Shown here: one piece after another, positions 7,335 to 10,564 of the stretch
Numbering within the stretch: position 1 is the first letter of the stretch
How the letters are laid out: each line of letters begins with the position of its first letter
Assembly (NCBI RefSeq): GCF_963921235.1
Contig: NC_086108.1
Location: 12,400,001-12,464,000, forward strand
Source of the DNA: Mobula hypostoma
Lineage: Eukaryota
Direction: 5' to 3'
DNA: 64,000 bases
The notes under the pieces: generated by a model
What the model was told of the DNA's origin: nothing
Databases searched by the model: none
What the model saw: the letters and a program-made list of their open reading frames with translations, nothing else
Translations under genes and position numbers: made by a program

Positions 7335-7954
7335 TGTTGAAAAGAGAACGGGTGAACCCAAACGCAGGACACTGACACGGAGGTAGCGTAATAGGAAGAG
7401 TGTTTATTAATGGTGGCAGGGAAGGCCGGGGAGCGAGAATTAGGCAGAGGTAAGTCAAGGAGTGAGCAAGACTGGATCGGAGATTGAACCCGGGTCGCTA
7501 CGGTGAGCAATTCTAAGCAGTCAAGAGACAGAGTTAACACAGGCAAACAGCGCGGATGAACGGGAGAGCAGGAGACAGGCAAAGCTTTTCTTGACACAGG
7601 GCGTTGCTGGAGCTGAACGGCAAACTGGAGATAGGCAGCAGGCAGCACTTATCTTGACACGGAGCGGCAAATGGAAAGACCAACGGCAGGCAATACTTAC
7701 CTTGACACAGAGAGACAGAGTTGCACAGGTAAACCTTGGAACTGAAGTAAAACTTAGAATACATCATTCTAAGCGGCTGGGAACGTGAATTACCACGCTG
7801 GCTGAAGCAACGGTCTAGCAACGAGTGGATGCAAAGCCGGGGTTTTTATGCTGCAGGTTTAGATGAGAATCAGATGCTGCATCAACAAGCCCAGGAGAAC
7901 AAGGGGAAAAGGGAATTAGGAGAATAAGAGGAATTAACGGTTGGGACCGTGACA
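7335..7954 (-). repeat. 3' LTR (620 bp)
   Basis: TGTCAC...TCAACA on the minus strand, AATAAA at 7403-7408 (minus), homologous to 9627-10564. Confidence 0.9.
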
Positions 7955-7989
7955 GTATCCCTCCCCAACAGGAGTCTCCAGGCAAACCA

Positions 7990-8127
7990 CCAGGCTTGCC
8001 CGGATTGTCGACGATCCAGGAGGGTGGAGCGGGTTTGGCAGGAGGGCACAACAGGCTGACAGACACAGGTTTCAGCTGGGAGGTGTGGAACGTGAGATGA
8101 ATGCGCCTGGATCTGAGTAACTTGAAT
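7990..8127 (-). pseudogene. Gypsy integrase C-terminal remnant
   Basis: FKLLRSRRIHLTFHTSQLKPV...PP resembles the LPxxxRIHPTFHVSxLKP motif of Gypsy integrases. Confidence 0.8.
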
Positions 8128-8469
8128 TTTATGCTGTTGTCTTCTGTGTTCTGGACTTGCATCTCTTTTACATCTTTTTTTTAATCACAGAAGATGGTTG
8201 ATTTCTTGATCTTGCAACTGATTCTGGAGCTGGAGATTTTCCCCAACTTTAAATCAGTTGTTGGGTTCTCTTTTGTGGAAATCAGTGAACGCTTTTCTTG
8301 CTCAGTTACAGACAAGTGCTCAGGACTGCTTACTTTCTTAGCTGCATGAGTGGTTGGTTTGTTCTGGCTACTTACATCTCTGGTCAGGTTTCTTGCTTTA
8401 TCTTCAACCTTTGTAGTCGTTTCTTGCGATTGTGTTCGGCTTTCCTTCTCGTGCTTGAACTGGTATGGC
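8128..8469 (-). pseudogene. Unidentified captured coding-like fragment
   Basis: Purine-rich, about 97 open codons (8181-8474), K/E/S/T-rich, lying between CUL1 and the integrase. Not recognised as TE sequence. Confidence 0.4.
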
Positions 8470-9000
8470 TTCAATAAACTTAAATACCACCATCACCTGA
8501 TTAAGTGTATCTTCAAGCTCAGCTTCTTCAGGATTCTTGGAGCTTTTCTTCAGTAGAGAGTCACAGCATCGTGCCAATAATTCCGGAGATTTATTTGGTG
8601 ACTGAGCCATTTTCTGTGACTGCTTTATTATTTGGGAAACGGCCACAAGCCTTATCTAAAGCAGCCACAAAGCCAGCATCATTGTTGAAAGCTGACATCA
8701 CTAGTGCATTATACTTCTTACGAACATCCAGAATTGTCTGTACATACATCTTGGGATCACTCAGAGCAGCTTCTCCACATTTCTCAATGGCAGCCAAGCC
8801 CTGGTTATGGATACGTGTTTCTACAAGTCTCTTCAGCTCCCCAAGGCCATCTTGGATTCGAGAGACTAAGTTATACTTTTATCTAAGTCCTCATTTCTAT
8901 CAGCATCTAATAAATTCTGAAATACCGTATGAAAAATTTCTCGATGTTTCTCAAAAGGTACTTGTTCACATTTATGAGCTAGTTCATCCTGGGTACTTTC
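8470..9000 (-). pseudogene. CUL1: Processed cullin-1 fragment B (middle region), frameshifted
   Basis: [27 protein letters not shown] / [57 protein letters not shown] / [44 protein letters not shown] matches vertebrate CUL1 as I recall it. No introns. Confidence 0.95.
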
Positions 9001-9150
9001 ATCACATTCACAGCAGACCCAATGTCGATTGAGTCACAGATTCCATTCAACACTTTCACTAGAAAACCTGTAATCTTCCCACTGCTGGGTATAAAATTTC
9101 AAAACACTTTCATCCATCAAACCTTCACCATCCTTAAGAGGGTTTGTCAA
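8998..9150 (-). pseudogene. CUL1: Processed cullin-1 fragment A (N-terminal cullin repeat)
   Basis: Hand translation [31 protein letters not shown] / KVLNGIC / [12 protein letters not shown] versus CUL1 [52 protein letters not shown]. Confidence 0.93.
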
Positions 9151-9430
9151 TTTTCTGGTTTCAATAGCATATTTTACCAATCATTGTACAACAGGGAATG
9201 TGTGTATGAAGTCCAGACAATGAATGTGATGTGATTTCAAATGGTGCGGGCACTTCATGTTTGGCAACATGGACAATTTTCTCAGTCAAGGCTATTTTCT
9301 GACCAATTGTAGAATTTTCTTGAAAAAGCAAATCAACATCAATATCAAAGTTGCATGTTGTAATACACCATGTCATACCACCCCCTGCCTTGTCAAATGG
9401 TGGCAGTCCCTTAATCTTTGCTCTGAAGTA
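9151..9430 (-). pseudogene. CCDC93: Processed CCDC93 N-terminal fragment
   Basis: [53 protein letters not shown] / [38 protein letters not shown] matches CCDC93 [92 protein letters not shown]. Confidence 0.93.
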
Positions 9431-9532
9431 TGATTCAGTTTGTGACAAGACATTGGCTTCTTCTAATTGTCTTTGTAATTGCACAATTTTCTCATTTGAT
9501 ACCCGGGAGCTCTGAGTCACTTCAATCAAGTT
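9431..9532 (-). pseudogene. ROCK1: Rho-associated kinase (ROCK1/2) coiled-coil fragment
   Basis: [30 protein letters not shown] resembles ROCK1 VSQNSQLANEKLSQLQKQLEEANDLLRTES. Which paralog is uncertain. Confidence 0.75.
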
Positions 9533-9549
9533 GCTCTCTGGGCGGAGTT

Positions 9550-9610
9550 TCAGTAGGGAACTCTGGCTGGCGAGGGCTTGTAGGATAGTGTTTGTGTCCG
9601 CTGGGTCCAA
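9550..9610 (-). pseudogene. Gypsy gag N-terminal remnant
   Basis: [20 protein letters not shown] begins 16 nt after the 5' LTR and resembles MDPA.. gag starts of fish Gypsy elements. The start codon reads TTG. Confidence 0.65.
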
Positions 9611-9626
9611 TTTGGCCAGATTGTTC

Positions 9627-10564
9627 TGTTGCAACGAGAACGGGTGAACCCAAACGCAGGACACTGACACAGAGGTAGTGTAATCAGAAGAATGTGTATT
9701 AATGGTTGCAGGGAAGGCCAGGGAGCGAGAATTAGGCAGAAGAAAGCCGAGGAGTGAGCGAGCCTGGACTGGGGATTGAACCCCGGTCGCTACGGCGAGA
9801 ACACAGCATTTAACCACTGAGCCAGCGGAGAGTGTAGACGGACGGCGGGATGAGGCAGAGCAGGGATGCGGACAAGGGGATGAGCGTGGCTGGGGGAGAA
9901 TGGCGGGCGGTATGCCATGCTCCTGTTAAGATGGAGAGACAGAGTTAACACAGGCAAACAGCACGGAAACAAAACTTAGAATGCACAATTCTAAGCATCT
10001 GAGAGACTGGGTAAACACAGGCGAACAGCACAAACAGAACTTAGAATACACAATTCTAAGCAGCCAAGAGACAGGGTTAATACAGGCAAACAGCGCGGAA
10101 ACAAAACTTAGAATACACAATTCTAAGCGGCCTAGCAACAGAGTTAGCACAGGAAAACAGTGCGGATGAACGGAGGAGCAGGAGGCAGGCAAAACTTTTC
10201 TTGACACAGGGCGTTGCTGGAGCTGAACGGCAAATGGGAAACAGGTAACAGACAATACTTATCTTGACACGGAGTGGCAAATGGAAAGACCAACGGCAGG
10301 CAATACTTATCTTGACACAGAGAGACAAAGGTACACAGGTAAACCTCGGTACTGAACTAAAACTTAGAATACACCATTCTAATCGGCCTGAAACATGAAT
10401 TACCACGCTGGCTGAAGCAACAGTCTTGCAACGAGTGGATGCAAAGCCGGGGTTCTTATGCTGCAGGTTTAGATGAGAATCAGGTGCCGCAATCATGGAG
10501 CCCAGGAGAACAAGAAGAAAAGGGAATTCGGAGAATAAGAGGAATTAACGGTTGGACCGTGACA
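9627..10564 (-). repeat. 5' LTR (938 bp) with internal hairpin-containing repeats
   Basis: TGTCAC...GCAACA on the minus strand; 318 bp longer than the 3' LTR. Confidence 0.9.

Follow-up and report, generated by a model that had tools for sequence, protein, structure and literature searches.

We analyzed a window of 64,000 nt from the ray Mobula hypostoma (contig NC_086108.1, positions 12,400,001 to 12,464,000; contig C50 in our searches of the 3.48-Gb genome, which comprises 200 contigs). Between window positions 7335 and 10564 lies a long terminal repeat (LTR) retrotransposon whose interior carries spliced fragments of four host genes. The element is on the minus strand, with its 5' LTR at 10564-9627, a 1.67-kb interior at 9626-7955, and its 3' LTR at 7954-7335. 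Read in its own direction, the interior consists of a gag start, ROCK, CCDC93, CUL1 piece A, CUL1 piece B, BOD1L1, an integrase tail, and a polypurine tract. The features, in this direction, are as follows.

10565..10569, minus strand: target-site duplication (TSD), upstream copy, GAGAG (CTCTC on the plus strand), read by eye
9627..10564, minus strand: 5' LTR, 938 nt, TG...CA, read by eye and with a repeat finder
9537..9626, minus strand: leader with a putative gag start, also present in L061 (interior positions 4-74), a relative that has gag, and in L074
9432..9536, minus strand: ROCK coiled-coil fragment, crossing one exon junction (parental exons L077)
9151..9431, minus strand: CCDC93 N-terminal domain fragment, about amino acids (aa) 33-135, with PDB and Pfam matches and a frameshift near 9180 (parental exons L070-L072)
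8998..9150, minus strand: CUL1 piece A, aa 100-152, crossing one exon junction (L063, L064)
8470..9002, minus strand: CUL1 piece B, aa 281-457, crossing at least four verified exon junctions, with two frame changes (L065-L069)
8120..8469, minus strand: BOD1L1 C-terminal coding fragment, with stops, crossing at least one exon junction (L085, L086)
7967..8119, minus strand: integrase C-terminal tail, a pol remnant, with an SH3_Tf2-1 match in the relative L062
7955..7966, minus strand: polypurine tract, purine run GGGGAGGGA followed by TAC, abutting the 3' LTR, read by eye
7335..7954, minus strand: 3' LTR, 620 nt, TG...CA, read by eye and with a repeat finder
7330..7334, minus strand: TSD, downstream copy, GAGAG (CTCTC on the plus strand), read by eye

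The LTRs, the TSD, and the polypurine tract define the element structurally as an LTR retrotransposon. The repeat finder reported three pairs of direct repeats (7508-7807/10118-10417, 300 nt, 88% identity; 7333-7507/9625-9799, 175 nt, 88%; 7881-7944/10492-10555, 64 nt, 91%), and the limits of the LTRs were set by eye, as these blocks overran the inner LTR ends by 1-2 nt. The two LTRs are 88-89% identical over 623 aligned nt, a divergence of about 11%. A stretch of about 318 nt that includes three tandem units of 65-67 bp is found only in the 5' LTR; because the 3' LTR has none of these units, the lengths of the LTRs have changed since integration. The number of tandem units (window 9800-10117) also varies among the LTRs of sister copies, some of which, such as L036, have more. 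The 5-mers flanking the element agree at five of five positions, a match with odds of 1/1024 by chance. The purine run occupies 7966-7958, and the equivalent position in sister copies also holds purine runs by eye. The initial annotation of this locus, made from the letters of the DNA, had described two LTRs and a perfect CTCTC duplication, and the repeat finder, direct reading, and the empty-site paralogues described below all agree with that description. A tRNA-like LTR motif resembling GGTTCAATCC raised the possibility of tRNA or short interspersed nuclear element (SINE) content, which we dropped: ARAGORN (0 genes) and Rfam (0 matches at E <= 0.1) gave no tRNA-like match in 7000-11000, where no comparison with host tRNAs was made.

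The interior has Pfam matches to CCDC93_N and Cullin only, and the reverse transcriptase and the integrase core are absent. The stretch assigned to the integrase tail is in frame in the relative L062, where it matches SH3_Tf2-1 with an E value of 1e-5 and 26 bits (the cut-off is 30 bits). Its 45 residues are matched by many short retroelement proteins, whereas a protein atlas queried with the open reading frame (ORF) spanning BOD1L1 and the integrase tail added nothing, returning only integrase-tail clusters with a best score of 0.80.

Each of the five host pieces is an internal coding fragment that has the same orientation as the element. CCDC93 (PDB 8f2u_N, aa 29-112, E 3.2e-29; Pfam CCDC93_N, 5e-18) and CUL1 (E 1.2e-48) were identified by protein matches, and a tblastn search with the 776-aa ray CUL1 places aa 100-152 at 9150-8995 and aa 281-457 at 9000-8470. 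The ROCK piece of the window copy reaches an E value of only 0.07; its identity is secured by parental exons in the same genome (86-88% DNA identity), the second of which matches the ROCK1 coiled coil with an E value of 7.5e-23, and a longer ROCK piece in a sister copy matches ROCK1 at E 3.6e-10. The parent may be either ROCK1 or ROCK2, the PDB coiled-coil comparison being available for ROCK1 alone. BOD1L1 was found through a stop-free 268-aa frame of L062 that matches aa 1738-1877 of the 1883-aa BOD1L1 of Narcine, an electric ray (E 2e-25). The L062 match includes a second BOD1L1 stretch near aa 1451-1541, and the window copy keeps the distal part only (8469-8120). The initial annotation had counted at least three captured genes, ROCK, CCDC93, and CUL1, and had left the piece at 8128-8469 unnamed; those three identities stand, as do its piece boundaries within about 10 nt, and the total becomes four with the assignment of the unnamed piece to the 3' coding end of BOD1L1.

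The genome contains the multi-exon parent of each fragment, at four separate loci on three contigs:

C5:160905696-161009497: CUL1 parent, 104 kb, multi-exon
C18:187160545-187164738: CCDC93 parent, multi-exon
C1:196886713 (about 196.89 Mb): ROCK parent, multi-exon, with the two-exon stretch L077
C5:89737234-89757834: BOD1L1 parent, multi-exon

Alignment of 14 small parental exon windows to the element demonstrates that the cargo consists of spliced pieces of host genes. The cargo is 86-97% identical to the parental exons at the DNA level (about 91.5% over 1313 aligned nt), with every alignment ending at a parental GT or AG border. The two ROCK exons align to 9536-9464 (86%) and 9470-9428 (88%), the three CCDC93 exons (C18:187.16 Mb) are 87-95% identical to the element, and for BOD1L1 (C5:89.756 Mb) the identity is 92% with exon L085 and 86% with exon L086. 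Nine exon-exon junctions crossed by the cargo were verified, one in ROCK, two in CCDC93, five in CUL1, and one in BOD1L1, and at least three more are probably crossed (in CCDC93 beyond its exon C, at the 48-nt CUL1 segment 8542-8495, and in BOD1L1 at 8469-8395). The introns of the parents at the crossed sites measure between about 80 nt (ROCK) and about 10 kb (CUL1). The sense-oriented, intronless cargo of the initial annotation is therefore confirmed by the multi-exon parental loci and the exon junctions that the element crosses.

We measured five of the junctions at which neighboring pieces meet, from gag/ROCK to CUL1/BOD1L1. Microhomology of 4-8 nt is present at three of the five. At CUL1 A/B, aa 152 is joined to aa 281 and the two alignments share the 5 nt ATGAA (9002-8998); both break points fall within exons, so the junction is not the product of exon skipping. 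At CUL1/BOD1L1, 6-8 nt are shared, judged against sister copies that retain more BOD1L1, and at gag/ROCK the shared sequence is the 4 nt GAGC, with the window form 105 nt shorter than L074. ROCK and CCDC93 share 1 nt, and CCDC93 and CUL1 share 0-2 nt, with one extra A that is unexplained.

The window copy belongs to an amplified family. A first look at the genome gave 1769 candidates for the LTR and 820 for the interior; among the 40 interior candidates that were scored, nine are near-full-length copies, 87-90% identical and located on contigs C21, C40, C12, C96, C2, C36, and C9. We took a census of cargo by merging the results of genome searches with CUL1, CCDC93_N, and ROCK, which yielded 45 non-parental loci and counts that are lower bounds. 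ROCK, CCDC93, and CUL1 occur together at no fewer than 21 of these loci (one of them a tandem pair); ROCK and CCDC93 occur together at six, ROCK and CUL1 at one, and CCDC93 and CUL1 at one. A single gene was detected at the others (ROCK at nine, CCDC93 at four, and CUL1 at three), and three of the ROCK-only loci have E values above 0.9 and may be chance matches. The CCDC93/CUL1 junction has an identical structure in all 27 of the other fetched CUL1-bearing loci that align there. The tandem arrangement of L049/L050 (C9:45956338-45962283), which reads LTR-interior-LTR-interior-LTR and involves a shortened variant (interior positions 6-920), looks like the result of unequal recombination between LTRs.

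In seven copies both LTR ends, located by self-alignment and motif search, fall within the fetched locus, and these copies could be read for TSDs. Three of the seven have a duplication that matches at five of five positions and differs from copy to copy (GAGAG in the window copy, CAGGA in L045, GGGCA in L074); L032 matches 5/5 with an offset of 1 nt, and L039 matches 4/5. With no reverse transcriptase or integrase core, many copies, and distinct TSDs, this is a non-autonomous element. Given that at least 21 loci share the same junctions, the capture did not occur at the window locus. The initial annotation had envisaged a mobile chimera that integrated as one unit, and had looked to copies elsewhere in the genome for support; the shared junctions and the individual TSDs of these loci provide it, with the qualification that the capture event itself must be placed elsewhere.

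The insertion site can also be reconstructed. The right flank is part of a repeat family for which a first look at the genome gave at least 1812 candidates, and in three of the five paralogues fetched (L080, L081, and L082) sequences like the left and right flanks adjoin. In L080 the overlap of the two flank alignments is exactly 5 nt, in L081 it is 3 nt, and in L082 the flanks are about contiguous, a pattern that marks an empty site in which the host repeat carries the 5-mer once. The window copy is an old insertion into another repeat, and the filled site appears to be common to two species labels among the short-read contigs. Very high-copy repeats lie on both sides of the element, at 6757-7227 and 10996-11152, where contig depth reaches hundreds of thousands in four of four runs.

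Related copies preserve other combinations of the same parts. Three of them serve as reference points:

C96:8389000-8398999: L061, gag-protease-BOD1L1 relative
C52:66595000-66604999: L062, gag-protease-BOD1L1 relative with a 268-aa open frame that runs through BOD1L1 and the integrase tail
C5:198665300-198669300: L073, ROCK-CCDC93-BOD1L1 form

L061 and L062 represent a large and seemingly older subfamily. Between their two LTRs they have the gag start and gag (PF03732), then protease, a BOD1L1 piece longer than that of the window copy, and the integrase tail. In L061, gag is matched by PF03732 (E 5e-15) and Ty3_capsid (1e-3), and protease families match with E values of 7e-5 to 8e-3, below their cut-offs. 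These matches point to a lineage of Ty3/gypsy type, as read from the gag, protease, and integrase tail of relatives with the same LTR and leader as the window copy. At other loci, aa 1-377 of the BOD1L1 query are contiguous and adjoin a protease match, and a 729-aa open frame crosses protease and BOD1L1 at C21:136408052-136409122. Intronless BOD1L1-like stretches account for the bulk of 62 rows, four of which are parental exons.

L073 and L074 combine the LTR and gag start with longer ROCK and CCDC93 pieces, BOD1L1, and the integrase tail, and have no CUL1. Their ROCK piece crosses one more exon junction than that of the window copy, and their CCDC93 piece reaches aa 164 of the human protein. 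Since the window form lacks sequence that L073 and L074 keep, it descended from something like them and not the reverse. The L073 locus also contains, at its positions 2061-2363 between CCDC93 and BOD1L1, an ORF similar to those of long interspersed nuclear elements (LINEs) with a reverse-transcriptase zinc-binding tail. The smallest members, L075 (C9:127877934-127878629) and L076 (C2:233874834-233875529), have an interior of about 400 nt in which the gag start and ROCK are followed by the initial 40 nt of CCDC93, by 40 nt of BOD1L1, and by the integrase tail; because their deletions are identical and they lie on two contigs, the mini form has itself been mobile.

The database proteins nearest to ORFs derived from the element come from manta rays, devil rays, and one stingray. 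In a stingray gene model the gag tail is joined to the same BOD1L1 stretch (76% identity), from which it follows that the first capture, that of BOD1L1, is probably old. The "uncharacterized protein" models P0125/P0275 and P0127/P0279 of manta ray and stingray are chimeras of protease or gag tail with BOD1L1 and are probably mis-annotated transposon remnants. Comparison of the L074 ORF with proteins of other species revealed no annotated ROCK-CCDC93 chimera among the 120 matches listed, all of which looked like ordinary CCDC93 fragments or unnamed contig proteins and were uninformative about the distribution of the chimera.

Based on these observations, we hypothesize that the family is a non-autonomous LTR retrotransposon of Ty3/gypsy type in which gag-pol was replaced in successive rounds by fragments of spliced host mRNA, and we assign this reading a probability of roughly 0.85. 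Host mRNAs would have been co-packaged with element RNA in virus-like particles, where reverse transcriptase would switch templates at short shared stretches. Besides the LTRs and the polypurine tract, the resulting chimeras would retain the leader, with its gag start, and the integrase tail. Equipped with these cis-acting parts, they could be transcribed and then reverse-transcribed and integrated in trans by the proteins of autonomous relatives. The order of events best supported by the surviving forms would begin with gag-protease-BOD1L1-integrase tail, as in L061 and L062, followed by gag start-ROCK-CCDC93-BOD1L1-integrase tail, as in L073 and L074. Entry of CUL1 between CCDC93 and BOD1L1, together with small deletions, would then have produced the window form, and the mini-derivatives would represent a fourth stage. 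Capture of spliced host mRNAs by an LTR element that then moved as one unit, as proposed in the initial annotation, fits every test that we ran; the serial template switching is read from the anatomy of the copies.

Several points weigh against this reading. No reverse-transcription step was observed, no primer-binding site with a TGG start adjoins the end of the 5' LTR by eye, and no autonomous partner with intact pol and the same LTR emerged from a protease search in which 150 of 4648 candidates were scored (longest open frame 769 aa) and none was followed up. The flanking 5-mers match poorly in L034 (3/5) and in the rearranged L041 (2/5), and two of the five measured junctions have no more than 2 nt of microhomology, including the one with the extra A. 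CUL1 A/B and the 105-nt shortening at gag/ROCK could equally have arisen as microhomology-mediated deletions at the DNA level after integration of a master copy, which is a fair alternative for these two within-piece junctions only. The order of the stages is argued from which forms keep the longer pieces rather than from a rooted tree.

The same anatomy could in principle have been assembled by LINEs, if processed pseudogenes had been inserted serially into an ordinary LTR element and trimmed by later deletions. LINE fragments do nest in sister copies, as the zinc-knuckle-like reverse-transcriptase ORF of L073 illustrates, and microhomology-mediated genomic deletion could yield junctions of the CUL1 A/B type; however, none of the five host pieces of the window copy has a poly(A) tail, the end of a 3' untranslated region, or a target duplication of its own. 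All five are internal coding pieces in the sense of the element, neighboring pieces abut directly at short microhomologies, and the mosaic takes the place of gag-pol instead of interrupting it, and we therefore consider a LINE origin improbable. That the mosaic is an assembly chimera of unrelated reads, a concern in a region this rich in repeats, is a possibility to which we give practically no weight, as identical junctions recur at 21 or more loci spread over many contigs. Short-read contigs without a single difference run across the outer edge of the 5' LTR (X1, 10523-10803; X2, 10517-10803) as well as four internal junctions, ROCK/CCDC93 (9329-9471), CCDC93/CUL1 (9101-9200), CUL1 A/B (8834-9064), and BOD1L1/integrase tail (8053-8221). 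The source of the best of these contigs may be the assembled individual itself; contigs under a second species label bridge 10526-10661 (X5, one difference) and 9100-9200. On the other side of the balance, none of the short-read contigs listed bridges the 7334/7335 border or spans the whole element.

A further question for the template-switching origin that we favor is whether the captured sequence still has a function. The window copy has TTG at 9610-9608 in the place of the start codon, which is ATG in L074 and also in other copies. In addition, its CUL1 sequence has both frameshifts and stops, its CCDC93 sequence is frameshifted, and its BOD1L1 sequence has stops. Its cargo differs from the parental exons by about 8.5%, and this figure, together with the 11% divergence of the LTRs, fits a capture that took place some time before the window insertion. 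The differences are spread nearly evenly over codon positions (20:31:33 of 84 at positions 1:2:3 in the window copy; 644:757:826 of 2227 summed over 32 loci, which are not independent). The cargo is a passenger in neutral decay. A domesticated or still-coding ROCK-CCDC93-CUL1 chimera that serves the host or the element might account for the 194-aa frame that is open across ROCK and CCDC93 in L074, for the 254-aa stop-free frame of the window across the LTR, gag start, ROCK, and CCDC93, and for the continued amplification of the family after every capture, yet the lost start codon, the frameshifts and stops, and the even distribution of differences make such a gene very unlikely. We are almost as doubtful that the host pieces were once more than passengers and helped the element. 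BOD1L1 is a chromatin and replication-fork protein with a basic C-terminal tail, and that tail may have tethered the element to chromatin, or truncated CUL1 and CCDC93 may have disturbed SCF and Commander. The points that may be cited for such help are a new burst of copies after each capture, the reading frame that BOD1L1 shares with the integrase tail in the older subfamily, and the 729-aa protease-BOD1L1 frame; if true, the family would be an endogenous counterpart, in the germ line, of oncogene capture by retroviruses.

Read as a non-autonomous element loaded by template switching, the family offers an unusually complete natural record of host-exon shuffling by an LTR element, with parents, junctions, and intermediates in one genome. 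It extends LTR-mediated retroposition to cartilaginous fish and leaves the understanding of the mechanism unchanged, and it explains some "uncharacterized protein" gene models of rays as chimeras of element and host. The record should be of use to researchers of transposable elements and to annotators of ray genomes.

The process itself is of a kind described before in flies, fish, birds, mammals, and maize. Oncogene transduction by acute transforming retroviruses, a system also cited in PMC5131818, likewise involves co-packaged host mRNA, template switching or read-through, loss of viral genes, and dependence on a helper. In contrast to oncogene transduction, the ray element is endogenous, of Ty3/gypsy type, and not an infectious retrovirus, and nothing in these data indicates that its cargo is expressed or confers an advantage. 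Large retrotransposon derivatives (LARD) and terminal-repeat retrotransposons in miniature (TRIM) are other non-autonomous LTR elements mobilized in trans. Trans-mobilized elements such as MaLR, which is mobilized by MERVL (cited in Tan et al. 2016, PMC5131818), likewise combine LTRs and cis-acting signals with the absence of reverse transcriptase and integrase and depend on the proteins of a partner. The interiors of MaLR, LARD, and TRIM are usually non-coding or derived from the element, whereas the interior of the ray element is a coding mosaic of four genes. Pack-MULEs and Pack-TIRs (PMC8277862) also carry a patchwork of host gene fragments that multiplies with the element; they are, however, DNA transposons with genomic cargo that includes introns. 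The "Pack-type" vehicle of the initial annotation is accordingly apt only as an analogy, given the direct LTRs of the ray element in place of terminal inverted repeats and its spliced cargo.

The closest parallels are the retrocopies formed by LTR-mediated retroposition, which lie between the LTRs of a discontinuous element and derive from partly captured mRNAs (Tan et al. 2016, PMC5131818). According to the main text of that study, the fusion points of such retrocopies in animals have a median microsimilarity of 6 bp, some animal chimeras join two or more parental genes, and some have been re-mobilized as non-autonomous elements. The ray element resembles them in its intronless cargo, in the replacement of ORFs between both LTRs of one element, and in the microsimilarity at its fusions; unlike the cases in that main text, it combines four genes, dozens of copies, LTRs that are 11% apart, and intermediates that are kept as subfamilies. 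Maize Bs1 (Elrouby and Bureau, as cited in PMC5131818) is an LTR retrotransposon with partial sequences of three unlinked cellular genes for which further cycles of retroposition are possible; it is a plant element with three genes, and the ray element has four. A literature search, in which results on related topics were judged by title, found no report of retrocopies made by LTR retrotransposons in elasmobranchs. The suggestion in the initial annotation that this process might not have been described thus holds for a four-gene, amplified case in a cartilaginous fish and not for the kind of event, which PMC5131818 describes in animals and plants. Measured against these systems, what is new here is the four-gene, amplified, cartilaginous-fish case, and the mechanism itself is no surprise.

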